DNA from: an uncultured Dorea sp.
GTDB lineage: Bacteria > Bacillota > Clostridia > Lachnospirales > Lachnospiraceae
Length of the DNA: 64,000 bases
Assembly (NCBI GenBank): GCA_934294775.1
Contig: CAKRAH010000009.1
Coordinates: 510-64,509 of the forward strand
Direction: 5' to 3'
The position numbers and the translations under genes were made by a program. Under the pieces are notes generated by a model. It saw nothing but the letters and a program-made list of their open reading frames with translations. It was not told the DNA's origin and did no database searches. How positions within the stretch are numbered: the first letter of the stretch is position 1; each line of letters opens with the position of its first letter. This document shows positions 4,097 through 31,079 of this stretch, one piece after another.

Positions 4097-4148
4097 GGGC
4101 GTGTATATTCTGTGAGTCGGCCACAGAAGGTACACGCTCTTTTTGTTT
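4097..4148 (+). terminator. Terminator-like hairpin 2 in the amt leader
   Basis: GGGCGTGTA..CTGTG-agtcggc-CACAG..TACACGCTC followed by TTTTTGTTT, about 90 nt upstream of the amt start codon. Confidence 0.45.
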
Positions 4149-4236
4149 GAAGGTTGTTGTCATGTATCCGAAAGGAACTGGCGGAGGCGGGGAAAGGACG
4201 TTATCGTACATCTGAAGGATGAAGGAGGTAACATTA

Positions 4237-5990
4237 TGACGAAAGAAGTATTAACGGCCATACAGGAAGCTGTAGGCACACAGGTATTTGGAATATGGTT
4301 CCTGATCGGTGCGGCTTTTGTATTTTTTATGCAGGCAGGATTTGCAATGGTAGAGGCAGGATTTACCAGAGCAAAGAATGCAGGTAACATTATCATGAAG
4401 AACCTGATGGACTTTTGTATAGGAACTTGTGTATTTATCCCACTGGGATTTGGAATTTTACTTGGAGAGGATGCACTTGGAGGATTTATCGGAGTACCGA
4501 CACTTGGAATCTTTACCGATTATGCACATTTTGACTGGTCTAACTTCGTATTTAACCTTGTGTTCTGCGCAACAACAGCAACCATCGTATCCGGAGCAAT
4601 GGCAGAAAGAACCAAGTTCTTATCTTATTGTATTTATTCAGCAGTCATTTCAGCAGTTGTATATCCGATCGAGGCTCACTGGATCTGGGGCGGCGGCTGG
4701 CTTGCAAGCTTAGGCTTTCATGATTTTGCAGGTTCTGCGGCAATACATATGGTAGGTGGAACAACCGCATTTATCGGAGCTGCTCTGGAAGGAGCCAGAA
4801 TTGGTAAATTTACAAGAGACAAAGATGGAAAAGTTACAAAAGTACATGCATTTCCAGGACATAACCTTGTAATCGGTGCACTTGGATGCTTTATCCTCTG
4901 GTTTGGATGGTATGGATTCAACGGTGCAGCGGCATCTACAGGATCCCAGCTTGCTTCAATCTTTATGGCAACTACGATCGCACCGGCAATTGCAACCGTT
5001 GTATGTATGGTATTTACATGGTTAAAATATGGAAAACCAGATGTATCTATGTGTCTGAATGCTTCCCTTGCAGGACTGGTAGCAATTACAGCTCCTTGTG
5101 ATGTGGTAGATGCAGCAGGTGCTGTTATCATTGGTGCCGTAGCCGGATTGTTAGTTGTATTTGGCGTATGGTTCTGTGATTATGTGGCACATGTAGATGA
5201 CCCGGTTGGTGCTGTTGCAGTACATTGCTTAAATGGTATCTGGGGTACGATCGCAGTCGGACTTTTTGCAACAAAGAGTGCACCAGAGTGTACCATCAAA
5301 GGCCTGTTCTATGGTGGTGGTTTCCATCAGCTGGGATTACAGCTTCTTGGTGTTGTAACTGTTATGGCATGGACGATCGTTACGATGACAATCGTATTCA
5401 AAGTAATCGATAAGACAATCGGACTCAGAGTTACTGAAGAAGAGGAAATCGTAGGTCTGGATGTGAAAGAACATGGTCTTGCATCTGCATACGCAGGATT
5501 CAGTTTGATGGATATCACAGAAGGAAGCATGAGTATCAATGAAAATACAGAGCTTGGTGAGAATGATTACGATGAAGCAACAGAAGCTCAGAGAGCAGCA
5601 GCTATCAAAGTGGCAGCTCCGGTAGATCCAGAGACAGGAATCCACAAAGTGGTTATTATCGCAAAACTTTCAAGATATGAGAAACTGAAGAGTGCCTTAA
5701 ATGATCTTGGAGTAACTGGAATGACTGTTACACAGGTTATGGGATGTGGAGTCCAGAAAGGTGCCGGCGAGAAATATCGTGGTGTTGAAATGGACGTAAC
5801 CGTACTTCCAAAAGTAAAAGTAGAAGTTATCGTAGGAAGCATTCCGGTAGAAAAAGTCATCGATACTGTTAAGAGAACACTCTACACAGGACATGTTGGA
5901 GATGGTAAGATCTTCGTTTACAATGTACAGAAAGTTGTAAAAGTACGTACAGGTGAGGAAGATTATGACGCATTAAGAGATGTGGAATAA
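4237..5990 (+). CDS. amt: Ammonium transporter (Amt family) fused to a C-terminal P-II (GlnB/GlnK) domain
   Basis: ATG at 4237 lies 8 nt after GAAGGAGG. About 11 TM segments carry Amt motifs (FMQAGFAMVEAG, DFAGSAAIHMVGG, GFNGAA). The last ~115 aa (IHKVVIIAKL...GVQKGAGEKYRGVE...GDGKIFVY) form a P-II fold with the T-loop YRG. Confidence 0.88.
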
Positions 5991-6076: not shown

Positions 6077-6121
6077 ATGCAAAGTATTCGAAAGAAGCTG
6101 CCAGTGGCAGGTTCTGTAGAT
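6077..6121 (+). repeat. Dispersed hairpin repeat, type B copy
   Basis: atgcaaagtattcgaaagaagctgccagtggcaggttctgtagat. Confidence 0.75.
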
Positions 6122-6191: not shown

Positions 6192-6220
6192 TTGACATAA
6201 AGAGATTCTGGCACTATAAT
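6192..6220 (+). promoter_or_regulatory. Consensus sigma-A promoter for ssrA
   Basis: TTGACA (6192-6197), a 17-nt spacer, then TATAAT (6215-6220), about 48 nt upstream of the mature tmRNA 5' end. Confidence 0.65.
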
Positions 6221-6267: not shown

Positions 6268-6615
6268 GGGCTTGTACTGGTTTCGACGGGGGTCTGGAAG
6301 TTGGAGAAGCCATCCGTAGTGGGACACTACGTTAAAAGTTCCATCTAAATATAAACGCAGACAATGAATTAGCGTACGCAGCCTAATTAGGCAGCAGTCG
6401 GCCCCGGATCATCCGCTGTCCGGGTCACCGGCTTCAAACAGGCGGAGCACTTCGTTTCCAAAGCTTTGAGGAAATGGAAGAATTTATGAAGCTACTAAAG
6501 TGTGTAACCTGTCATTAGGTGACGCATGGAGGGAATGTCAGAATAATGACTGTGATGGGAGATGCTCGAATGGATGGGCTTTCGGACGCGGGTTCAACTC
6601 CCGCCAGGTCCACTA
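6268..6615 (+). ncRNA. ssrA: Transfer-messenger RNA (tmRNA, SsrA)
   Basis: The 5' end GGGCTTGTACTGGTTTCGACGGGGG pairs with the 3' end ...GGACGCGGGTTCAACTCCCGCCAGGTCCA. This gives a 7-bp acceptor stem with G3:U70 and a T-arm GCGGG-TTCAACT-CCCGC. The internal tag ORF GCA GAC AAT GAA TTA GCG TAC GCA GCC TAA (6357-6386) encodes ADNELAYAA. The 3' CCA is not fully encoded (CTA). Confidence 0.92.
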
Positions 6616-6666: not shown

Positions 6667-6710
6667 ACCAAAGTATGCAAGAGAAGCTGCCAGTGGCAGG
6701 TTCTCTGTAT
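6667..6710 (+). repeat. Dispersed hairpin repeat, type A (best consensus copy)
   Basis: accaaagtatgcaagagaagctgccagtggcaggttctctgtat. Confidence 0.8.
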
Positions 6711-6925: not shown

Positions 6926-8005
6926 ATGAAAAAGCGGATTGTAATTGCTATTTTATGTGCCACTATGTCGGTGGGAATGGTTGGATGTAATAAAACGGAG
7001 TCTTCTTCAGATAAGACCCAGACATCAACTGAGAATAAAACAACAAAAACAGATACAGCAAACGATGAAAAACAAAGCAAAGATATCTTTGCGATGGATA
7101 CCTATATGACGGTCACAGCGTATGGAGAACATGCACAGGAAGCCGTGGATAAGGCAGAAGAAGAGATCAACAGATTAGACGGGATGTTATCTACCGGAAA
7201 AGAGACCAGCGAAGTATATAAACTCAATCAGGCAGGAGAAGGAACGGTATCAGAGGATACCGCCTATCTGTTTGAAGAATCAGAAAAGCTCTATAAAGAG
7301 ACTGACGGCGTATTTGACATCTCTATCTATCCGGTAATGGATGCCTGGGGATTTACTACAGAAAATTACAGAGTTCCGGGACAGGATGAAATGAATACAT
7401 TGCTTGAAAATGTAGATGCATCGAAGATTACTTATGACAAGGCATCAAAAAAGATTACTCTTCCGGAAAGAGTAAAGATTGATTTTGGAGGAATCGCCAA
7501 AGGATATACATCTTCCAGGATCATGGACATTTACAAAGAATGTGGAGTGACAAGTGGTCTTGTAAGCCTTGGCGGTAACGTACAGCTGTTAGGTAAGAAA
7601 ACGGACGGAAGTGACTGGAAAGTTGCCGTGGAAAGCCCGGAAGAAGACGGCAATTATCTAGGAATCCTGCAGGCTGCAGATAAAGCGGTTATTACATCCG
7701 GCGGCTATGAGAGATATTTTGAACAGGATGGTAAGAAATATCATCACATTATTGATCCTGCTACCGGATATCCGGCGGAAAACGGTCTGACATCCGTTAC
7801 AATCGTAAGCGATGATGGAACATTGGCAGATGGACTTTCCACATCACTGTTTATCATGGGAAAAGATAAGGCAGAAGCGTTCTGGAAAAAGAACAGTGAT
7901 AAATTCGATACGATCTTACTTACAGATGATAATGAATTATATGTATCTGAGGGAATTGCAGATAAGTTTGAATCTGATTATGACGTTCATGTAATGAAAA
8001 AATAA
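6926..8005 (+). CDS. apbE: FAD:protein FMN transferase (ApbE family), lipoprotein
   Basis: 359 aa. The signal peptide has the lipobox MVG-C. ApbE motifs are present: DTYMTVTAYG, DISIYPVMDAWGF, KIDFGGIAKGY, GGYERYF...HHIIDPATG. Confidence 0.85.
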   Translation: MKKRIVIAILCATMSVGMVGCNKTESSSDKTQTSTENKTTKTDTANDEKQSKDIFAMDTYMTVTAYGEHAQEAVDKAEEEINRLDGMLSTGKETSEVYKLNQAGEGTVSEDTAYLFEESEKLYKETDGVFDISIYPVMDAWGFTTENYRVPGQDEMNTLLENVDASKITYDKASKKITLPERVKIDFGGIAKGYTSSRIMDIYKECGVTSGLVSLGGNVQLLGKKTDGSDWKVAVESPEEDGNYLGILQAADKAVITSGGYERYFEQDGKKYHHIIDPATGYPAENGLTSVTIVSDDGTLADGLSTSLFIMGKDKAEAFWKKNSDKFDTILLTDDNELYVSEGIADKFESDYDVHVMKK

Positions 8006-8095: not shown

Positions 8096-9877
8096 ATGGA
8101 AAAGGAAAAGATTATCAGAAAAATCAAACAGGGAGCACCATTTACATCAGCGGTCGTAGTTGCAGCATGTATCGGGGTGTCGTTAAGCGGGTATCAGGCA
8201 CCGGTGTATGAAGCACAGGCACAGACAAAAGAAACAAAACCAGTCAAGACTGAGGAGACGAAAGCTGAAGAAGCACAGGCAAAAGGTTCTTTTGATCTGG
8301 AAGATGGAATCTATAAAGGAACCGGAACCGGTTATGCAGGCGAGATCAGCGTGGCAGTTACGATCAAAGATAAGCAGATTACAGCGATTGATATCTTGAG
8401 TTCATCGGATGATGCAGCATTTTTTAACCGTGCGAAAGGTGTGATCGACCGCATCATTGCAGGACAGACACTGGAAGTCGACGTGGTATCGGGAGCGACT
8501 TACAGTTCTAACGGAATTATCAGTGCAGTAAAGAATGCACTGACAGGTGAAAAAGACAGCGGAACAACCGGGCAGTCACAGTCGGGCAATGCAGCAGCAG
8601 AAGGAAGTACGCTGACACTTGCAGATGAAGAGGAAGCGGCAGCATATAAAGACGGAACCTACTGCGGAACGGGAACAGGATTTGGTGGTACTTTAAAAGT
8701 ACAGGTTGTGATCAGCGGTGGAAAGATTACATCGATAGATGTGATCGAGAATCACGATGACAGCAGTTACTTAAGCCGTGCAATGGCTCTTATCAATAAC
8801 ATTATTGCAACACAGAGCACGAATGTTGATGTGGTATCAGGAGCAACCTACAGTTCTAACGGAATCAAGAGTGCGGTAAGAGATGCATTAAGACAGGCAG
8901 CGGTAAGCGGAAGCGCAGCAGCTGAAAATGCAGCGGATGACAGCCAGTCATCACAGGATACATCAGATACCACACAGGTAACCGGTAATTTCCCTTATAA
9001 AGAAGGAATCTATTACGGAACAGCAGAAGGTTATAACGGTGACATCGAAGTTGCGGTAGTCCTTCAGGATCAGTCCATCAAAGCCGTACTTGTGACAAAG
9101 AATCATGACGATGCCAGATTCTTCGACCGTGCGATGGAAGTTGTAAAGAATATTATGAAAAAGCAAAGCACCGACGTAGACGTGGTATCGGGAGCAACTT
9201 ATAGTTCCAACGGTCTGATCAATGCAGTGAAAAATGCATTAAAAGAAGCCGAAAAAGCAACGAACGGACAGCAGACGATAGAAGAAGAGAAAAAAGCAGA
9301 CACCACAGAACTTGAAAAGCTTCTGGAAGAAGCAGACGGACTGGTACAGGACGAATACACAGAAGCAAGCTGGGCGGTGCTTGAAGTAAGACTAGAAGAT
9401 GCGAAGAAGCTTGTAGACGCAGATAAGACAAAGATCACGCAGGATGAGGTAGACGAAGCAGTTTCCAATCTGAATCAGGCGATGGCGTTACTTGAGAAAA
9501 AGGACGACGGCGGAGACGATAATGATAATAACATTTTCAAAAATGGAATTTATGAAGGAATCGCGCTTTGTAAACCGGATGAGGATGAAGATTTTGAGGC
9601 ATATAACCTGTCCTTAAAAGTTACGATCAGGGACGATAAGATTGTTGCGGTTACGGATGTGACAGGCGATGGAGATTCATCTAATGATAAATACATCAAT
9701 AAAGCAGCAAACGGAACATCAAGCAAGAAAGGCGTCGCAAGTCAGCTGATCGGCAAATCCGATACAGAAGGAATTGATGTGATCAGCGGGGCAACCTGCT
9801 CATCAAAAGCAATCCTGGAAGCGTGTGATAACGCACTGGTTGCTGCAAAGAACAGTAAGGCAGAAAGCGGAGAATAA
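8096..9877 (+). CDS. Extracytosolic protein with four FMN_bind domains and one FIVAR-like helical repeat, N-terminal membrane anchor
   Basis: 593 aa. There are four ~90-aa repeats, each ending in a flavinylation motif: VDVVSGATYSSNG three times and IDVISGATCSS once. The N-terminal hydrophobic segment is APFTSAVVVAACIGVSL. The helical repeat is ..DEYTEASWAVLE...QDEVDEAVSNLNQAMALL. Confidence 0.8.
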   Translation: MEKEKIIRKIKQGAPFTSAVVVAACIGVSLSGYQAPVYEAQAQTKETKPVKTEETKAEEAQAKGSFDLEDGIYKGTGTGYAGEISVAVTIKDKQITAIDILSSSDDAAFFNRAKGVIDRIIAGQTLEVDVVSGATYSSNGIISAVKNALTGEKDSGTTGQSQSGNAAAEGSTLTLADEEEAAAYKDGTYCGTGTGFGGTLKVQVVISGGKITSIDVIENHDDSSYLSRAMALINNIIATQSTNVDVVSGATYSSNGIKSAVRDALRQAAVSGSAAAENAADDSQSSQDTSDTTQVTGNFPYKEGIYYGTAEGYNGDIEVAVVLQDQSIKAVLVTKNHDDARFFDRAMEVVKNIMKKQSTDVDVVSGATYSSNGLINAVKNALKEAEKATNGQQTIEEEKKADTTELEKLLEEADGLVQDEYTEASWAVLEVRLEDAKKLVDADKTKITQDEVDEAVSNLNQAMALLEKKDDGGDDNDNNIFKNGIYEGIALCKPDEDEDFEAYNLSLKVTIRDDKIVAVTDVTGDGDSSNDKYINKAANGTSSKKGVASQLIGKSDTEGIDVISGATCSSKAILEACDNALVAAKNSKAESGE

Positions 9878-9888
9878 GGAGAAAAAGA

Positions 9889-10323
9889 ATGAGAGAATTC
9901 TGGGTGAGGCTGGTCAGTGCGATTGCTGTAGTGGGACTGATCTTTGGATATAATTCAGTCCTGGATACAAGAGCAAAAGACGATCAGATTGCAAAATTAA
10001 ATGCCAAGATTACCGATGAAAAATCCGGTGATTCCGAAGAATCCTCCGACGGAGCTTATAAAAACGGAACTTATACCGGAGAAGCAGATGGATTCGGAGG
10101 AACGATTGAAGTAGAAGTAAAGATAGAAAAACATAAAGTTGCAGAGGTAAATATCGTATCAGCGGACGGCGAGGATGGATCGTATCTGTCAATGGCAGAA
10201 GATATTATTCCGAAAATTGTAGAGGCACAGAGTGCAGATGTGGATACAATAAGCGGAGCAACCTTTAGTTCTACAGGAATCAAAAATGCAGCAAAAGAAG
10301 CACTGGAAAAGGCGGTAGAGTAA
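9889..10323 (+). CDS. Membrane-anchored single FMN_bind domain protein
   Basis: 144 aa. N-terminal TM (VRLVSAIAVVGLIFGY) followed by an FMN_bind domain ending VDTISGATFSSTG. Confidence 0.8.
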   Translation: MREFWVRLVSAIAVVGLIFGYNSVLDTRAKDDQIAKLNAKITDEKSGDSEESSDGAYKNGTYTGEADGFGGTIEVEVKIEKHKVAEVNIVSADGEDGSYLSMAEDIIPKIVEAQSADVDTISGATFSSTGIKNAAKEALEKAVE

Positions 10324-10324
10324 A

Positions 10325-11197
10325 GTGGCAGAAAAGACAGAGAAAAAGTTAAATGTAAAACAGATGAAAAAAATACATACCTGGTTAAGAGCAGCCATTC
10401 AGTTATTGTATTTTATCTTTATACCATCTGTGTATACCGCAGCATTTGCCGGAGTAAAATACATATTTACACAGATTGGAGCAGGTGAAAAAGTGGCACT
10501 TACTTCATTCGTAAGTGTACTGATCGTCGTATGTGTATATACGATGATCTTCGGAAGGTTTTTCTGTGGATTTGCCTGTGCGTTTGGAAGTTTTGGAGAT
10601 GCAGTAAATGCAATATATAGAGCAGTCTGCAAGAAATTAAAGAAAAAGCCGGTTCAGATACCGGAGCATGTGGCATCTAAACTTGCATATTTAAAATATG
10701 TATTACTGATCATCATCGTACTGATGTGCTATAACGATGTATACAGCAAGGCGCAGGGAACAAGTCCGTGGGATGTATTCTCTATGCTTCATGCAGGAAA
10801 CTTCCGCCTGGGAGGTTACGGGATTGGTCTTGTTATATTGATTTTGTTGATTGTGGGAATGTGTCTGGAAGAACGTTTCTTCTGCAGAAACTTATGTCCG
10901 ATGGGAGCAGTATTTTCACTGGTTCCGGTATTACCGTTATTCTCACTTCACAGAGACCGGGGAAACTGCATTCCAAAGTGCAGTGGCTGTACAAGAAAAT
11001 GTCCATCCGGCATCGGACTTCCTGAGGACGGATCATGGAAGGTAGAGGGAGACTGCTTTCAGTGCCAGAAATGTATCGACACATGTCCGAAGAAAAATAT
11101 CCACTGCGGAGTAAAGGCACTTCGTGGAAATGAAATATGGTTCACAGTACTTAGAGCTGTGATTTTACTTGGATTGTTTATCTGGCTTGGTGTATAG
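10325..11197 (+). CDS. NapH/NosR-like polytopic 4Fe-4S binding membrane protein
   Basis: 290 aa. There are several TM helices, two membrane-proximal motifs (FFCGFACAFG and FFCRNLCPMG) and two C-terminal ferredoxin-type clusters (CIPKCSGCTRKCP and CFQCQKCIDTCP). The GTG start is 1 nt after the preceding stop, and the exact start is uncertain. Confidence 0.7.
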   Translation: MAEKTEKKLNVKQMKKIHTWLRAAIQLLYFIFIPSVYTAAFAGVKYIFTQIGAGEKVALTSFVSVLIVVCVYTMIFGRFFCGFACAFGSFGDAVNAIYRAVCKKLKKKPVQIPEHVASKLAYLKYVLLIIIVLMCYNDVYSKAQGTSPWDVFSMLHAGNFRLGGYGIGLVILILLIVGMCLEERFFCRNLCPMGAVFSLVPVLPLFSLHRDRGNCIPKCSGCTRKCPSGIGLPEDGSWKVEGDCFQCQKCIDTCPKKNIHCGVKALRGNEIWFTVLRAVILLGLFIWLGV

Positions 11198-11273: not shown

Positions 11274-11317
11274 CACCTTACGTTCGAAAGAATCTGCCAG
11301 TGGCAGATTCCGTAGAT
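11274..11317 (+). repeat. Dispersed hairpin repeat, type B copy with fully paired stem
   Basis: caccttacgttcgaaagaatctgccagtggcagattccgtagat. The stem GAATCTGCC/GGCAGATTC is perfectly complementary, a double change relative to the other copies. Confidence 0.75.
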
Positions 11318-11361
11318 ACCATAGCATACAAGAGAAGTTGTCGGTGGCAGGTTCTCTGCAT
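11318..11361 (+). repeat. Dispersed hairpin repeat, type A copy
   Basis: accatagcatacaagagaagttgtcggtggcaggttctctgcat. The 5'-arm C-to-T changes keep G-U wobble pairs. Confidence 0.7.
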
Positions 11362-11460
11362 TACGGGGATTTGTAAATAGTCTTTAGGGATGCGCAATTT
11401 TTGGGTTATAGGTTAGCGATGGCTAACTTAATAATAAAATTTATCAATAAGGAGGCTTTT

Positions 11461-14400
11461 ATGAAAAAGAAAGAGATGAAGACAAAAGCAATGGCTGTGG
11501 CCATGTCAGCAACAATGGCAGCCAGCATTTGCCCGGCTGTACCGGCAATGGCGGTAACAAAAGACCAGGTGGCAAAAGATGGCGTATATACAAAGACAGC
11601 TCATGTTACAAGAACAGAAGCAGATGTAGACGATGAATGGGATGAATATGACGTTGAAGTCTCTCTGACTGTAAAAGATGGGAAATTCTCAGATATCACA
11701 GTAACTCCGGGTGAAGGGTATACAGATGAGAATAAAACATATCTGGCAAAAGCATACAGTAAGTCAAAAGGTATCCAGACATTATTAAAAGATAAAGATG
11801 CAACAGAAGATACAATTAACGGATGGGATACTGTATCAGGAGCAACAAGATCCTCAACAGCTATTAAAAAAGCAGCCCTGGAAGCAATCCAGTCAGCACC
11901 AGTAGCAGAAGCACCGGTAACAGTGGATACATCTGCTCTGGAAAAATCAATCGAACAGGCAAAAGCGCTGAATGAGTCGGACTATACAGCAGAGACATGG
12001 AGCGTATTAAAAGAGAAACTTGCAGCAGCAGAGACAGCTGTTTCTGAAAAGAAATCCCAGGATGCTGTAGATACAGCAAAGAATGAACTGGATGCAGCAA
12101 TTGCAGGACTTAAGAAAGCAGAAGTGGCAAAAGAAGTTTATGTATTGATGAATATTCCATATAATGCATTTTATCAGGCTGATACAAACAGTAAAACAGA
12201 CGCTGTTTCTTCTGCAACACTTCAAAAAACAAGAGTCAGTGGTCTTGCGGGTGGATCTTATCATGTAGACCCGGAGGGTTCAGATATTAGCGGAGTGACA
12301 TTCCCTGTTAAAATCAGTTCAGATGCGTTAAAGAATTATAAGCAGGTTACGGATGACAGTAAAGTTTCTATTACGACAAGTGTAAAAGGAAATACAAGTA
12401 CAACAGAATATACAGGAAAAGATGCCCTTTTTGAAAGCGAAAACTATTCTTATTATATTTTGAGTGAAGAACCATCATATTATAAAGAAGCATCGGTTGA
12501 ATCTGATGGAACTCTTTCGTTTGGTAAGGTTATAGGAACAGCACAGACATTAAGTGATGCTACAGGAGAATTTTCAACAAAGACACGTTACGGAGATTAT
12601 GAATTAGATATGACTGGTTTGCCAGATTCTATTTCTAAAGTATACGGTGTTGTGATTGGAACGAAAGAAGGAGATAAATACGGACTTCGCCATGTGGAAA
12701 ACATTTGGAAAAAGAAAGAACTTGCATGGAGTACAGGATTTGTTACAGAATCGCATGGAAACCAACTGAGTTATGAAAATTACAAGGCTATGATGGGACA
12801 GACCATTAACCAGGTAACTTATTATACAGATGCAGGAATTTATGAAATTCCGGTGAATATCTATGTGCCGGTTAAATTCTCGGGGGAAGTAAAAGTTGAA
12901 GATACTGAGCTGGAGTCTGGAGAAACAACGTATACAGTCAGTGGTATTCCGGATGATTACGAGGCACAGTACAGCGTAAAAGGGCTTAAAGATGTAAAAG
13001 CAAAAGATGGAAAACTTACATTTGACAGCAAAGATGCAACTCCGGGACAATACACTTTGACAATCAGCGACAAAAGTGGTAAATACGCAGATATTACTAC
13101 AAAGTTCCTTCTTACAACAGATAAGGTGCCGGTTAGCTATGACGAAGAAAGTAATGGTTTAGTACCGGCAGAAAAATATAGCCAGAATGATGCAGATGCG
13201 TACGTGAAAAATATTTCTTCAGTAACAGTAAATGGAGAAAAATATGCAGCAACAGGAAAGGGTTCTGTAAAGATTATTAAAGAAGATGGAACATTAGACA
13301 CAACAGCAAAGCCGTTTGCAGATGCAAAAGATGGGGATAAATATGAAATCACAGTTGCATCAACTGGATATACAACTGATTATGATTTCACATATACAGT
13401 GAACGATCAGAATGAATACAAATATGTATACGCAGGACTTACATGGGCTGAGTACTGGGCAGCAGAAGGTGTACAGGCAGCAGGAGATGCTTCATCATCT
13501 GAGGCAGTAGATACAAAGGGAGAATCCGATAAGGGAGCATTCGATGTTGTAACACGTGCAACAACAAACCACGGATTACACAGAGGAAGCTATCAGTGCT
13601 CATCAGTCATCTATATGAAAGATGGATCTACTTACAGTGTAGCATACTATCCGGAAGCAGACAGCCGTACAACGGCAGTACTGACAAATGGCCAGAAAGT
13701 CACATACAATACAGAGGATATTGACCACTACATCGTAACAGGACTGAAATATGTACCAGTGAAAGTTGCAGCAGCTGATTACGAGGCATTTGCGCAGAAA
13801 TATGCAGTAGTAGAGAATGGCTCAGAGTTAACAGGAGGATTCTCAGAAGGAAATCTTTCAAGCTACTCAGGAATCACAGCAAATGTAACAGAGAACACCA
13901 ATGGTCTTAAGACAGCAACTAAGAATGAGGATGGATCATTCAGCTTCTCAGCAAGAGAAACAGGAACAGAATCCGGAATCACAGGACAGGAATTAAAGAC
14001 AGCACCAACAGCAGAGGATGCAGGACTGACAGTCAAAGAAGCAAAGGGATCATACGGAGAGTTCTTAAGAGTAGATCTGACTCAGAACTATGGAGATCTT
14101 GGAGCAAATATGCAGGCTGTAAAATGGACATATTATGGCGATGACAGCACATACAGCAATGCAAAAGCAACATACGGAACAAAATTCGCATCAGATAACT
14201 GGATGCATAAATCAATGGGAATCCAGCTCGGACTTACTGATTCCTTAAGATGTACCCTTCCAGAGGGAACAGATGGAACCGGATACTGGACAATTACAAT
14301 CTCAGCACTTGGATATAATGATGTAACATATCAGTTCCAGGCAACCGATGAGAACATCGTAAAACCAGATGCCGGAGAAATCAATACAGCAAATCTGGAA

Positions 14401-15243
14401 GCAGCAATTGCCAAAGCAGAAGCACTGAATAAAGATGAATACACAGAAGCAAGCTGGGAAGCAATGCAGGTAGAGTTAAAAGAAGCCAAAGAAGAATTAG
14501 AGGCAAAACACTCACAGGCAACAGTAGATGAAGCAACAGAGCACTTAAATGCAGCAATCGATGCACTGGAAAAATCAGAGACACCTGCAGAAGTAGACAC
14601 AGCAAAACTGGAAGCATCTATCGCCGTAGCAGAAGGTTTAAAAGAAGCAGATTACACAGCAGACAGCTGGAAAGCAATGCAGAATGCACTTGCAACAGCT
14701 AAGGCAGCACTGGAAGCAAAAGAAAGCCAGACAGCAGTAGACAGCGCAGCAGAAGCTCTTGACAGTGCAGTAGCAGCACTTGTAAAGGCTGATTCAGAAG
14801 ATCAGGTCAAAGAAGTATCTACAGACGCACTGGAAAAAGCAATCAGCACAGCAGAAGGCTTAAAAGAGTCAGACTACACAGCAGACAGCTGGAAAGCACT
14901 TCAGAGTGCCCTTACATCAGCTAAGACAGCATTGGCTGAGAAGAAAGATCAGACAAGCGTTGACGCAGCAACAGAGAACCTGAACAAAGCAATCAGCGCC
15001 CTTGTAAAAGCATCTTTAACATCAGGAAGTACAACAACTACAACAGGTACATCCGGAACAAAGACAGGCACAACAGGATCAAAGACATCCGGAACAGCTA
15101 CAGGATCAAACAGCAGCACAAAAGCAGCTAAGACAGGAGATCCGGCAGGTGTACTTGGATGGCTTGGACTTGCAGTTTCTTCACTCGGAGCAGGAATCGG
15201 TGGATTCAAACTGAAAAGAAGAAGAGACGAAGAAGAAAAATAG
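11461..15243 (+). CDS. Giant cell-wall-sorted surface protein: signal peptide, FMN_bind domain, FIVAR repeat, two uncharacterised ~400-aa central modules, three FIVAR repeats, Thr/Gly/Ser linker, sorting-signal-like C-terminus
   Basis: ATG at 11461 lies 6 nt after AAGGAGG. The signal peptide is MKKKEMKTKAMAVAMSATMAASICPAVPAMA. The FMN_bind motif is WDTVSGATRSS. The C-terminus is AAKTGD + hydrophobic segment + KLKRRRDEEEK. The longer ORF from 11401 lacks an RBS. Confidence 0.75.
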   Translation: MKKKEMKTKAMAVAMSATMAASICPAVPAMAVTKDQVAKDGVYTKTAHVTRTEADVDDEWDEYDVEVSLTVKDGKFSDITVTPGEGYTDENKTYLAKAYSKSKGIQTLLKDKDATEDTINGWDTVSGATRSSTAIKKAALEAIQSAPVAEAPVTVDTSALEKSIEQAKALNESDYTAETWSVLKEKLAAAETAVSEKKSQDAVDTAKNELDAAIAGLKKAEVAKEVYVLMNIPYNAFYQADTNSKTDAVSSATLQKTRVSGLAGGSYHVDPEGSDISGVTFPVKISSDALKNYKQVTDDSKVSITTSVKGNTSTTEYTGKDALFESENYSYYILSEEPSYYKEASVESDGTLSFGKVIGTAQTLSDATGEFSTKTRYGDYELDMTGLPDSISKVYGVVIGTKEGDKYGLRHVENIWKKKELAWSTGFVTESHGNQLSYENYKAMMGQTINQVTYYTDAGIYEIPVNIYVPVKFSGEVKVEDTELESGETTYTVSGIPDDYEAQYSVKGLKDVKAKDGKLTFDSKDATPGQYTLTISDKSGKYADITTKFLLTTDKVPVSYDEESNGLVPAEKYSQNDADAYVKNISSVTVNGEKYAATGKGSVKIIKEDGTLDTTAKPFADAKDGDKYEITVASTGYTTDYDFTYTVNDQNEYKYVYAGLTWAEYWAAEGVQAAGDASSSEAVDTKGESDKGAFDVVTRATTNHGLHRGSYQCSSVIYMKDGSTYSVAYYPEADSRTTAVLTNGQKVTYNTEDIDHYIVTGLKYVPVKVAAADYEAFAQKYAVVENGSELTGGFSEGNLSSYSGITANVTENTNGLKTATKNEDGSFSFSARETGTESGITGQELKTAPTAEDAGLTVKEAKGSYGEFLRVDLTQNYGDLGANMQAVKWTYYGDDSTYSNAKATYGTKFASDNWMHKSMGIQLGLTDSLRCTLPEGTDGTGYWTITISALGYNDVTYQFQATDENIVKPDAGEINTANLEAAIAKAEALNKDEYTEASWEAMQVELKEAKEELEAKHSQATVDEATEHLNAAIDALEKSETPAEVDTAKLEASIAVAEGLKEADYTADSWKAMQNALATAKAALEAKESQTAVDSAAEALDSAVAALVKADSEDQVKEVSTDALEKAISTAEGLKESDYTADSWKALQSALTSAKTALAEKKDQTSVDAATENLNKAISALVKASLTSGSTTTTTGTSGTKTGTTGSKTSGTATGSNSSTKAAKTGDPAGVLGWLGLAVSSLGAGIGGFKLKRRRDEEEK
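14371..15012 (+). repeat. Three tandem FIVAR-like coding repeats (~200 nt each) within the giant surface protein gene
   Basis: The peptide pattern [DE]YT[AE][DA]SW[KE]A[LM]Q..L..AK..L..K.SQ..VD.A...L..A[IV].AL recurs three times. The DNA of repeats 2 and 3 is visibly similar (gaYtacacagcagacagctggaaagca...). Confidence 0.6.
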
Positions 15244-15644: not shown

Positions 15645-16325
15645 ATGGATAAAATTAAAATTTTAGTAGTAGACGATGAAAGCAGAATGAGGAAGCTTGT
15701 AAAGGATTTCTTAGGTAGAGAAGGATATCAGGTAATTGAGGCCGGGGACGGTATGGAAGCAATGGAAAAATTCTATGATGAGAAGAACATTGCACTGATC
15801 ATTCTGGACGTTATGATGCCGAAGATGGACGGATGGCAGGTATGCCGTGAAGTGCGTCAGGAATCCAAAGTACCGATCATCATGCTGACAGCAAGATCAG
15901 AAGAAAGAGATGAACTTCAGGGATTCGATCTGGGCGTGGACGAATACATTTCCAAACCATTCAGTCCGAAGATTCTGGTTGCCAGGGTCAATGCAATCTT
16001 AAGAAGAGCCAATGTATTGGGCGGTGGTGATGAGATTGACGCCGGAGGTATTCTGATTGACAAAGCAGCACATCAGGTGAAGATCGATGGAAAAGAGATT
16101 GAATTAAGCTTCAAGGAATTTGAGCTGCTTGCGTATTTTGTGGAAAATCAGGGCATCGCATTGTCAAGAGAGAAGATATTGAACAATGTATGGGATTATG
16201 ATTATTTCGGAGATGCAAGAACGATCGATACCCATGTGAAGAAATTACGAAGCAAACTTGGAGAAAAAGGCAATTATATCAAGACCATCTGGGGAATGGG
16301 ATACAAATTCGAGGTTGATGCATAA
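15645..16325 (+). CDS. OmpR-family two-component response regulator
   Basis: 226 aa. Receiver domain (ILVVDDE...LDVMMPKMDG) plus winged-helix Trans_reg_C domain (...TIDTHVKKLRSKL...IKTIWGMGYKF). Confidence 0.88.
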   Translation: MDKIKILVVDDESRMRKLVKDFLGREGYQVIEAGDGMEAMEKFYDEKNIALIILDVMMPKMDGWQVCREVRQESKVPIIMLTARSEERDELQGFDLGVDEYISKPFSPKILVARVNAILRRANVLGGGDEIDAGGILIDKAAHQVKIDGKEIELSFKEFELLAYFVENQGIALSREKILNNVWDYDYFGDARTIDTHVKKLRSKLGEKGNYIKTIWGMGYKFEVDA

Positions 16326-17830
16326 TGAAGATAGAAAATTTAAAAAAAAGGATGAAACCACAGAATATACACCGGTCTTTAAAGACGCAGATGAGTATGG
16401 TATTTGTGGGACTTCTGATCTGTCTGGTAGCAGCATTCATGATCATCAATGGAAGATTTCTGGAGCCATATTATATCAGTAATAAGGAATCACGTTTTAT
16501 CGAACTCTATGAGAATCTGAACAATGTATCCAATGATGATGACTGGGATGCGAAAAAGAAGAATGATTCATTGCTTCATTTTGCAGAAAAGAATAATATA
16601 TCTTATCTGGTTATTGAAAAAGATAACGATGTCCATACCAATGTCCATGATAAGAATATGCTGAAAAATCAGTTGATGGGATATTTCCTGAATCAGGCGC
16701 AGAAAGAAAGCAGTGTGCTCAAATCAACGGATAATTACCAGATCACAAGATCCTGGGATCCGTGGAATCAGAACTACTATATCGAAATGTGGGGCAATCT
16801 TGATGACGGAAGCCAGTTTCTTTTAAGAAGTCCGGTAGAAAGTATAAAAGAAAGTGCGGCAATATCCAATCGTTTCTTATTATATATAGGAAGTATTCTG
16901 ATCGTTATTACGGTTCTTCTGATCTGGTATTTTTCAAAGCGGATCACAGAACCGTTAAGAGAACTTGCAAGATTATCTGACCGTATGGCGGATCTGGACT
17001 TCGAAGCCAAATATACCAGTGGAGGGAGTAATGAGATCGGAGAACTGGGAGCGAACTTTAACCGTATGTCTGAAAAACTGGAAAGCACGATCTCAGAATT
17101 GAAAAAAGCGAACAACAGCCTGCAAAAAGATATTGAACAAAAAGACAAACTTGAAAAGATGAGAAATGAGTTCCTTGGAAATGTATCGCATGAGTTAAAG
17201 ACCCCGATTGCACTGATCCAGGGATATGCAGAAGGGCTAAAAGAAGGGGTTAACGAAGATGCAGAGAGCAGGGATTTCTACTGTGATGTTATTATGGATG
17301 AAGCAGCCAAGATGAACCGAATGGTGAAAAATCTTCTTACATTAAACCAGCTGGAATTTGGTGATGAGGATATTGTATTTGACAGATTTAATCTGACAGC
17401 CCTGATCAGAGGGGTGTTACAGAGTATGGAGATTCTTGCTGATCAGGCGGATGCAACTGTGAATTTCCGTCAGACAGAAGATATCTACGTATGGGCAGAT
17501 GAATTTAAGGTAGAACAGGTAGTGAGAAATTACGTAAGTAATGCATTCCACCATGTAAGCGGAGACAAGGTAATAGAAGTTAAGATGATCGTAGAAGGTG
17601 ATAAGGTAAGAGTCACAGTATTCAATACTGGTACACCGATCCCGGAAGAAGATATTGGTCATATCTGGGATAAATTCTACAAAGTCGATAAGGCGCATAC
17701 AAGGGAATATGGAGGCAACGGAATCGGATTATCTATCGTAAAGGCAATCATGAAGTCCTTCCATCAGCAATACGGAGTAAAGAATTACGACAACGGTGTT
17801 GAATTCTGGTTCGAACTTGATGTAAAATAA
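16325..17830 (+). CDS. Sensor histidine kinase (two TM segments, extracytosolic loop, HAMP, HisKA, HATPase_c)
   Basis: 501 aa. H-box FLGNVSHELKTPIAL, N/G boxes (NAFHH..., GGNGIGLSIVKAI). TAATG start/stop overlap with the response regulator gene. Confidence 0.85.
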   Translation: MKIENLKKRMKPQNIHRSLKTQMSMVFVGLLICLVAAFMIINGRFLEPYYISNKESRFIELYENLNNVSNDDDWDAKKKNDSLLHFAEKNNISYLVIEKDNDVHTNVHDKNMLKNQLMGYFLNQAQKESSVLKSTDNYQITRSWDPWNQNYYIEMWGNLDDGSQFLLRSPVESIKESAAISNRFLLYIGSILIVITVLLIWYFSKRITEPLRELARLSDRMADLDFEAKYTSGGSNEIGELGANFNRMSEKLESTISELKKANNSLQKDIEQKDKLEKMRNEFLGNVSHELKTPIALIQGYAEGLKEGVNEDAESRDFYCDVIMDEAAKMNRMVKNLLTLNQLEFGDEDIVFDRFNLTALIRGVLQSMEILADQADATVNFRQTEDIYVWADEFKVEQVVRNYVSNAFHHVSGDKVIEVKMIVEGDKVRVTVFNTGTPIPEEDIGHIWDKFYKVDKAHTREYGGNGIGLSIVKAIMKSFHQQYGVKNYDNGVEFWFELDVK

Positions 17831-31035: not shown

Positions 31036-31079
31036 GCCAAAGCATGCAAGAGAAGCTGCCAGTGGCAAGTTCTCTGTAT
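31036..31079 (+). repeat. Dispersed hairpin repeat, type A copy
   Basis: gccaaagcatgcaagagaagctgccagtggcaagttctctgtat. Confidence 0.8.

Follow-up and report, generated by a model that had tools for sequence, protein, structure and literature searches.

Tp47-superfamily modules are a conserved terminal partner of flavin-based extracytosolic electron-transfer cassettes in gut bacteria and Treponema pallidum

A 64,000-nucleotide (nt) stretch of DNA from an uncultured Dorea sp. (GenBank assembly GCA_934294775.1, contig CAKRAH010000009.1, positions 510 to 64,509 of the forward strand; hereafter the window) holds a five-gene flavin-related cluster that ends in the gene for a giant surface protein, at positions 11461 to 15243. 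We find that two modules of this protein belong to one superfamily with Tp47 of Treponema pallidum, and that, T. pallidum included, flavinylated systems for extracytosolic electron transfer have a conserved terminal partner in the Tp47 superfamily. The new part is the family of head modules, made up of the Tp47-like module (module 2 of the giant protein) and a diverged relative that we call module 1; flavin-based extracellular electron transfer is the known part. Both modules open in parallel and bear a loop that resembles the site at which the flavin transferase ApbE installs covalent flavin mononucleotide (FMN), as had been noticed in a reading made from the sequence alone. That observation is confirmed here and its interpretation is partly supported.

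Two related modules in a giant surface protein

The sequence-only reading had recognised neither module as a known domain. For module 2 this was wrong: its halves match the Pfam families PBP-Tp47_a and PBP-Tp47_c, in that order, with 205.6 and 257.3 bits (cut-off 25), and on these matches module 2 is a true Tp47_a plus Tp47_c unit. Its sole solved relative is T. pallidum Tp47 (PDB 1O75), to which it aligns by profile over residues 5-329 with an E value of 1e-27, the PBP-Tp47_a half falling on 1O75 residues 5-70 and the PBP-Tp47_c half on residues 180-328. Tp47 carries FDAVSRATHGHGAFRQQFQ at the exact position of the module 2 loop FDVVTRATTNHGLHRGSYQ, with FDAVSRAT (within residues 5-70) at the site aligned to the module 2 motif, and the two share the further blocks Y..L..EYW, FD.V[ST]RAT..HG..R, T.GLK, YYG.D, YGTK...D.W and G.GY..T...GY.D. 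Both are extracytosolic and both are encoded near FMN_bind genes. Their identity is only ~27-30%, and they differ in context: Tp47 is a free lipoprotein with an extra immunoglobulin (Ig)-like domain D and a bigger domain-B insertion bearing a proposed SVTK motif, whereas module 2 is one module in a multi-domain, probably wall-anchored protein that also contains FMN_bind. At the membrane, T. pallidum Tp47 is paired with an MsrQ-like protein and the giant protein with a NapH-like one. The Tp47-like module family comprises 1,563 clusters at 90% identity.

Module 1 has no Pfam match, either in the giant protein or in 41 diverse relatives, and in BLASTP it did not match module 2 significantly (E = 3). 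A first hhalign comparison aligned it with the Tp47 profile over the first ~140 residues (93.8% probability, E 1.7e-7), with the motif, GSY[HQ], G-x-x-[FY]-x-PVK and DG[ST][LF]SF in register. Using a more diverse module-1 profile, we obtained 94% probability and E 1.4e-7 over 186 columns, which pair module 1 residues 3-206 with module 2 residues 4-277, extend into the Tp47_c half and place a second invariant module 1 block, YGLRHVENIW, opposite YGTKFASDNWMHK. The C-terminal halves alone gave a weak colinear match (E 0.034), a stronger one being found only at full length with the more diverse profile. When hhalign was re-run with controls the real score was 53 and all 81 controls scored 36 or less (reversed, 15.7; 40 column shuffles, at most 25; 40 block shuffles that keep the motif, at most 36). 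The internal duplication proposed by the sequence-only reading is thus real at the superfamily level, and module 1 is, by these profiles, a compact paralogue without the Tp47 insertions. Since only profile-profile comparison links module 1 to Tp47, it is a superfamily-level relative and not a member of the Pfam family; compared with Tp47 it is far more diverged, ~70 aa (amino acids) shorter and has Ser in place of Tp47's Arg.

Structure comparison added little to this kinship. Module 1 was modelled twice with AlphaFold2, once together with the Ig-like spacer that follows it and once alone, and both models are all-beta and confident (predicted local distance difference test, pLDDT, 88 and 86; predicted template modelling score, pTM, 0.85). 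In Foldseek searches of the PDB they found no significant core neighbour (best E 0.011) and did not return 1O75, the matches being generic Ig or fn3 arrays at a template modelling (TM) score of ~0.2; for the spacer, too, generic Ig or fn3 arrays were all that came back, and the module-1 profile found no match among PDB sequences. The Foldseek test of the kinship is negative or uninformative; a local 3Di alignment may fail here, since Tp47 domain A is split by the domain-B insertion.

The giant gene lies in a long open reading frame spanning 11401-15243, in which the true start is the ATG at 11461, with AAGGAGG 5' of it, and an identical copy of the protein occurs in 25 blocks of human-gut metagenome assemblies. 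The motif strings, their coordinates and the domain order (FMN_bind, FIVAR, HID by Pfam) had been read correctly from the sequence, and the Shr-type HID/DUF1533 repeat, offered with low confidence, was the right call. The module sizes needed correction: module 2 measures ~320 aa, not ~400, and the first segment of "~400 aa" consists of module 1 (~250 aa), the Ig-like spacer and the HID. Pfam finds FIVAR in four stretches of the protein. Its features, all on the + strand, are as follows.

11461..15243, +, giant surface protein gene, 1,260 aa plus stop codon
11461..11553, +, Sec signal peptide, aa 1-31 (MKKKEMKTK...AVPAMA, cleaved before V), read from the sequence with a predicted cleavage site
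11650..11892, +, canonical FMN_bind domain, aa 64-144 (Pfam PF04205, 29.7 bits, cut-off 22)
11827-11847, +, FMN_bind flavinylation motif DTVSGAT, aa 123-129 (Thr129)
11926..12126, +, FIVAR repeat 1, aa 156-222 (Pfam FIVAR; boundaries from the sequence)
12130..12876, +, module 1, aa 224-472, compact diverged Tp47-like module without a Pfam model
12199-12219, +, module 1 loop DAVSSAT, aa 247-253 (D at nt 12199; Thr253)
12253-12264, +, module 1 GSYH, aa 265
12886..13119, +, Ig-like beta-sandwich spacer, aa 476-553 (seven strands in AlphaFold2, model residues 256-332)
13186..13380, +, Shr-like HID (DUF1533), aa 576-640 (Pfam PF07550, E 1.6e-6, 29 bits, cut-off 22.3)
13411..13869, +, first half of module 2, PBP-Tp47_a, aa 651-803 (Pfam PF14889, E 4e-61)
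13543-13563, +, DVVTRAT of the invariant module 2 loop, aa 695-701 (D at nt 13543; Thr701), followed by GSYQ at aa 709
13891..14367, +, second half of module 2, PBP-Tp47_c, aa 811-969 (YYGDDSTY...YGTKFASDNWMHK; Pfam PF14888, E 8e-77)
14377..15012, +, three FIVAR repeats, aa 973-1184 (Pfam FIVAR; repeats read from the sequence)
15013..15240, +, Ser/Thr/Gly-rich stalk and C-terminal sorting-type signal (read from the sequence)
15124-15141, +, AAKTGD, followed by a hydrophobic segment and KLKRRRDEEEK (read from the sequence)

The giant protein had been called wall-sorted. The tripartite layout is indeed present, with AAKTGD, a hydrophobic stretch and the basic KLKRRR tail; the canonical LPXTG is not, the pentapeptide being AAKTG, and an NCBIfam scan gave no LPXTG anchor match. 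Orthologues have LPGTGD, LPTTGD, LATTGD, SPKTGD or APKTGD at this site. Because the three elements occur together and orthologues bear signals of the LPGTGD type, the protein is probably sortase-anchored to the wall. Its NCBIfam matches (LnbX, ZmpB, HypBA2) are driven by FIVAR and fall far under the cut-offs, none being informative.

The module 1 family comprises 559 clusters at 90% identity and 769 clusters at 50%. Up to 7-8 copies occur in one protein, and many of the array proteins (P0277-P0418) have no FMN_bind in the same chain; their wall anchors are varied and include SLH, choline-binding, FIVAR and LPXTG-type elements. The 41 diverse relatives carry wall-binding and spacer domains only, with no catalytic domain, and the Shr-like HID is common beside module 1 (21/41 proteins).

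Linkage to flavin-transfer cassettes in gut bacteria and treponemes

As the sequence-only reading had it, the giant protein is the last member of its cluster. The order is ApbE, a protein with four FMN_bind domains, a protein with one, a NapH-like protein and the giant protein, with apbE four genes upstream of the giant gene.

6926..8005, +, ApbE flavin transferase, probably a lipoprotein (signal ending ...VGMVGC; Pfam ApbE, E 5e-89)
8096..9877, +, multi-flavinylated relay protein, 593 aa, with an N-terminal membrane anchor, four FMN_bind domains and one FIVAR (Pfam FMN_bind, E 6e-58)
9889..10323, +, small membrane-anchored FMN_bind protein, 144 aa, with DTISGAT (Pfam FMN_bind, E 5e-14)
10325..11197, +, NapH-like polytopic membrane protein with two CxxCxxCxxxCP [4Fe-4S] motifs (Pfam Fer4_5, PF12801)

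Each FMN_bind domain of the relay protein contains DV[VI]SGAT (aa 129, 245, 362 and 561), and the protein has a weak PplA-like match in NCBIfam. The NapH-like gene, whose NCBIfam NapH/MauN match (E 1e-21) is under the curated cut-off, is presumed to encode the transmembrane electron conduit. The signal peptide places the giant protein outside the cytosol, with its cognate apbE in the same cluster.

We sought relatives of the Tp47-like module in one genome per species and found them in 337 species, the best 80 of which are Lachnospiraceae, Coriobacteriia (Collinsella, Senegalimassilia, Eggerthellaceae) and Thomasclavelia. Linkage was counted at those Tp47-like loci, taken at species level, that are flanked on each side by 6 kb or more (n=48). 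ApbE and FMN_bind genes were each present at 47/48 of these and a NapH-like gene at 46/48; at the complete metagenome loci seeded with module 1, all three were found in 22/22. The arrangement of modules differs by species: writing F for FMN_bind, M1 for module 1 and T47 for the Tp47-like module, we observed F-M1-Ig-HID-T47, T47-M1-Ig-HID, T47 alone, T47-T47 and M1-T47-M1. Proteins with module 1 only (from Roseburia hominis, and a 515-aa M1-fn3 protein) take the same terminal slot of the cassette, as do stand-alone Tp47-like proteins of Lachnospira eligens and two other Firmicutes, and in many proteins the modules are fused directly to FMN_bind domains.

The Tp47-like modules of Coriobacteriia (Actinomycetota; loci L035-L087) are 60-64% identical to those of Lachnospiraceae (Bacillota), and their loci are rearranged, with the giant gene first and ApbE last. 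This identity and the rearranged order suggest horizontal spread of the cassette among gut anaerobes. Only one complete Tp47-like locus, L033 8166-11140, lies without an ApbE/FMN_bind cassette; its 430-aa Tp47-like gene directly follows genes for an NIR_SIR protein (sulfite/nitrite reductase-like, 525 aa) and a PnuC-type transporter, neighbours that may be a coincidence or a different partner.

In T. pallidum, 110 nt beyond tp47 (locus L088 10001-12497) lies a gene for a 360-aa fusion of an MsrQ-like (Ferric_reduct) and an FMN_bind domain, the site of which reads DVVSEAT, with Glu for Gly. A second treponeme has the order Tp47-like, MsrQ-like-FMN_bind, ApbE, NusG_II and an ECF component. The gene after tp47 is very probably TP0572, named as a putative flavinylation target in a study that does not mention Tp47 (Deka et al. 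2015). A literature search found no paper that joins Tp47 to flavin chemistry or remarks on the adjacency of tp47 and the MsrQ-like-FMN_bind gene.

Clusters of the kind seen in the window have been described as NapH-like and as multi-flavinylated, with large unannotated FIVAR-bearing proteins (Meheust et al. 2021, eLife; PMC8238504). The window's cluster has the PF12801 protein beside ApbE and FMN_bind that defines the NapH-like type, and more than one FMN_bind domain, as defines the multi-flavinylated type, occurs in the 593-aa relay protein; in the giant protein a single canonical FMN_bind is present. The earlier account of these clusters describes neither the link to T. pallidum nor the Tp47-like and module-1 heads that recur in them, Tp47, PF14889 and PF14888 being absent from the main text and from a possibly incomplete text of the supplement (PMC8238504). 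MsrPQ and systems of the NosR/NosZ type share the layout of a membrane conduit with an extracytosolic partner; here, in contrast, the partner lacks a molybdopterin, copper or haem domain and no known catalytic family is detectable in it. The Listeria-type system (FmnB/ApbE, PplA) likewise sends electrons outward through covalent FMN that ApbE installs on Gram-positive surface proteins, but its Ndh2, DmkA and EetAB are absent from the cassette, where the entry is NapH-like, the FMN_bind relay counts 4 plus 1 plus 1 domains and the terminal protein, probably wall-anchored, has Tp47-like heads.

The conserved loop and its possible flavinylation

The likeness of the module loops to the ApbE site is upheld: of D-x-x-[S/T]-G-A-[S/T] they keep D, [S/T], A and T, with Ser or Arg for Gly. 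The motifs of the giant protein are not due to chance. D..[ST].AT arose on average 0.25 times per shuffled protein and at least three times in 35 of 20,000 shuffles, and its pairing with GSY[HQ] within 5-20 aa, observed twice, was seen in 1 of 20,000. The modules as cryptic FMN_bind domains were considered and rejected, as hhalign found no fold-level similarity beyond the motif.

An alignment of homologues, suggested in the sequence-only reading as a check, found the motif Thr essentially invariant in more than 500 of them. All full-length sequences among the top 120 module 1 matches have D-x-x-[ST]-S-A-T...K-[TS]-[RK]...GSYH. In 256 module-1 copies, taken from 142 diverse representative proteins, the core is mostly TSAT (121) or SSAT (81), followed by STAT (11), TTAT (10), SAAT (6), SSAS (2), SGAT (1) and TCAT (1), the rest being mostly SSST, ASAT or TAPT; the final Thr is kept in ~254/256 and lost in ~2, and the only substitution for it with the remaining motif intact is Ser, seen twice. 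In Tp47-like modules G[AG]FD-x-[VI]-[ST]-R-A-T-x-N-H-G-L-H-R-G-S-[YF]-Q is nearly invariant (top 120 matches; one RPT). D-A-V-[ST]-R-A-T is found in 35/36 matches to T. pallidum Tp47, which include other treponemes (~50% identity) and Firmicute proteins (27-30%); the exception has TRPT. The Thr is kept in all 36 and in every full-length sequence of the top 120 module 2 matches. The position of Gly is thus held by Ser, Thr or Ala in module 1 and by an invariant Arg in the Tp47-like module. The central modules fall in a family of known fold with an invariant Thr, and not in a well-characterised non-redox adhesin family with an unconserved one.

The same departures from the Gly occur in authentic FMN_bind domains of sister cassettes, which have at the flavinylation position STAT (15), TTAT (10), SSAT (2-3), SRAT (14), SRST (11) and ARAT (10), besides SHAT and TNAT; the N-terminal FMN_bind of giant proteins reads STAT (15), SGAT (10), TTAT (10) or SSAT (2). 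The last FMN_bind of the relay protein is D[TAV]VSRATCSSKAILEAC in many species, one sister-cassette example having DTVSRATCSSKAILEAC against the DVISGATCSSKAILEAC of the window. Full variant sites seen include DTVSRATCSS, DVVSRSTYSS, DVVARATYSS and DAVTTATISS, with Arg, His, Asn, Thr or Ser for Gly, and variants of the last FMN_bind were noted at loci L008, L010, L011, L016, L020, L025, L027, L039, L050, L055, L056, L069 and L078, and likewise in the Coriobacteriia loci L035-L087. Such Gly-less domains suggest either FMN_bind domains that are not flavinylated or a relaxed specificity of ApbE in these cassettes. The Gly is not essential, since a Gly-to-Ala mutant was still flavinylated to ~50% (review PMC12052999). 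Precedent comes from DUF2271, DUF3570, Flavodoxin_4 and FMN_red, uncharacterised or unrelated folds encoded near apbE with a conserved [S/T]-x-A-[S/T] that were later proven to be flavinylated, DUF2271 and DUF3570 becoming proven ApbE substrates through the same reasoning from association plus motif (PMC8238504). The validated non-FMN_bind substrates of ApbE all keep the Gly ([S/T]GA[S/T]), however, and the modules do not. In both module 1 models the motif loop is the least confident part (pLDDT 59-72), consistent with an exposed, cofactor-dependent loop.

The explanation that we favour as a whole, and hold tentatively, is that of terminal Tp47-superfamily heads on a flavin relay, with the loop Thr flavinylated by ApbE. 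We infer the direction and path of electron flow, the wall anchoring and the flavinylation of the modules as follows. The giant protein would be the outermost member of a five-gene, flavin-based extracytosolic electron-transfer cassette, into which electrons would enter via the NapH-like Fe-S membrane protein. The cassette's ApbE would install covalent FMNs along the relay, and electrons would hop from the 144-aa FMN_bind protein to the relay protein with its four FMN_bind domains, across the wall, and on to the FMN_bind domain of the giant protein (Thr129), to finish on the two paralogous modules at the cell surface. Each module would expose the invariant loop D-x-x-[ST]-[S or R]-A-T...GSY[HQ], ApbE would also esterify FMN to loop residues Thr253 and Thr701, and the modules would act as terminal flavin heads from which an external acceptor takes up electrons; the arrays of up to 8 modules in relatives might then be flavin wires. 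That the modules are redox-chain components of some kind is likely; that modules 1 and 2 are themselves flavinylated is a reasonable possibility. With about the same probability the Tp47-like domains, with the module 1 subfamily and Tp47 included, may form a seventh structural class, not recognised before, of ApbE/Ftp-flavinylated domain, with FMN on the Thr of D-x-x-[ST]-[R/S]-A-T as a terminal flavin. Such a class might be fed through NapH-like conduits in gut Bacillota and Coriobacteriia and through MsrQ-like ones in treponemes, and the penicillin binding of Tp47 might then be a side activity.

Several points weigh against flavinylated modules. We know of no validated ApbE site with Arg or Ser for Gly; canonical FMN_bind domains in these cassettes still show 257 SGAT, the SRAT and STAT variants being unvalidated, and the modules lack the x-[ST]-S found after the Thr in FMN_bind. 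An FMN_bind profile of 150 sequences met module 1 in hhalign at E 0.075, over 35 motif columns only, and the Tp47-like module at E 0.24, again in a motif-only alignment, and Foldseek linked the module-1 models to neither 1O75 nor any flavoprotein. The invariance of the Arg in Tp47-like modules suggests a specific role beyond recognition by ApbE. The ever-present FMN_bind genes suffice to explain the linkage to ApbE, and among the loci examined no cassette had ApbE and a module-1 or Tp47-like gene without FMN_bind, a combination that would have spoken for flavinylation; a few Tp47-like genes lie outside any cassette (L033 and probably L074). The 1O75 crystal structure, obtained from recombinant protein made without Ftp, was reportedly deposited without flavin.

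Much of this would equally fit heads that carry no flavin. As terminal heads for redox chemistry or ligand binding, the modules would then be reductases or acceptor-binding partners outside the cytosol, fed by the adjacent, covalently flavinylated FMN_bind as MsrP is by MsrQ or NosZ by NosR. D-x-x-[ST]-x-A-T, GSY[HQ] and YG-x-[KR]-x-x-[DE]-N-W would form an active site or a pocket in which a substrate, a metal or a non-covalent cofactor is bound. FMN_bind partners are at hand in every cassette, the giant protein's own being fused upstream; Tp47 with its MsrQ-like-FMN_bind neighbour has the layout of MsrQ/MsrP; beyond the motif, numerous residues of the modules (Tyr, His, Arg, Lys, Glu, Asn and Trp) are invariant, as in the site of an enzyme; and the invariant Arg stands where ApbE sites bear Gly, with no homology to flavin-binding folds detected. 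Yet 7-8 tandem copies of module 1 would be unusual for a catalytic domain, the modules match no known cofactor-binding or catalytic family, and the same variant motifs recur in true FMN_bind domains. Moreover, Ser is the only motif-keeping substitution for the Thr, with Asp and Ala near-invariant, which is the signature of ApbE. We regard heads without flavin as a serious but rather less probable explanation than flavinylated ones. It is improbable that the modules have no redox role and are adhesin or host-binding repeats, or domains acting on peptidoglycan, found beside flavin genes through co-regulation of surface functions. Their make-up is adhesin-like (FIVAR, HID, Ig-like, fn3, SLH, choline-binding and LPXTG-type elements), they are shuffled and repeated as adhesin repeats are, and Tp47 is described, as the Pfam names also have it, as penicillin-binding, with carboxypeptidase and beta-lactamase activities. 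The motifs of that activity, however, are missing or only partly kept (SVTK in an absent insertion, KTG as WMHKSMG, TEN in part), the modules are fused directly to FMN_bind in many proteins, and the linkage at 47/48 loci, with two different membrane conduits across Bacillota, Coriobacteriia and spirochaetes, would be hard to explain without functional coupling.

Tp47 (TP0574), a 47-kDa lipoprotein antigen, has thus been described as penicillin-binding. As a trait of the whole family, penicillin binding was rejected on motif conservation in the family-wide alignment: the proposed SVTK lies in a Tp47-specific insertion that gut modules lack, KTG is not conserved and aligns to WMHKS-MG, and TEN is present in module 2 (VTENTNGLK), its Glu varying in other treponemes. 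For the Tp47 family the fold is known, and the question of what Tp47 does in the cell dates from the 1990s.

Neighbouring features and wider meaning

Directly downstream of the giant gene, at 15645-17830 (+), lie an OmpR-type response regulator and a HAMP/HisKA histidine kinase, which are kept in place in all matching metagenome contigs and could regulate the cassette. Upstream, the gap between apbE and an ammonium transporter gene with a C-terminal P-II (GlnB-like) fusion (amtB-glnB; 4143-5990, +, 615 aa; Pfam Ammonium_transp plus P-II) is filled by the transfer-messenger RNA (tmRNA) gene ssrA at 6268-6615 (+; Rfam RF00023, 162.6 bits, E 6e-65) and a perfect sigma-70-type promoter, TTGACA-17-TATAAT, at 6192-6220; smpB lies further upstream in a matching metagenome contig. 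The tmRNA gene was the sole Rfam match in and around the cassette, with no riboswitch (for example for FMN) found there. A short palindromic intergenic repeat, approximately CAAAGTATGCAAGAGAAGCTGCCAGTGGCAGGTTCTCTGTAT, occurs at 881-901, 6094-6114, 6683-6703, 11290-11310 (with a second near 11345) and 31052-31072, often in tandem and right after terminator-like hairpins; it has 8 matches, where shuffled sequence is expected to give 0. A pair of copies sits in the 263-nt gap between the NapH-like and giant genes. The repeat looks like a REP-like element.

Taken together, these findings suggest that the whole Tp47 family takes part in extracellular redox chemistry, possibly with covalent flavin. 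Tp47 is among the most abundant antigens of T. pallidum and is used in diagnosis, and a family-wide link to flavins offers a concrete, testable hypothesis for its role. A name can now be given to the large, unannotated surface protein that recurs in NapH-like and multi-flavinylated clusters, and two families of head modules are defined. The findings also suggest that ApbE recognition may accept Ser, Thr or Arg for Gly, in which case motif searches for flavoproteins could be widened to match. The cassette is common among abundant Lachnospiraceae and Coriobacteriia of the human gut (Fusicatenibacter, Blautia, Dorea, Roseburia, Lachnospira and Collinsella), and its presence is thus the mark of a redox activity, as yet uncharacterised, that the gut microbiota exerts outside the cell.

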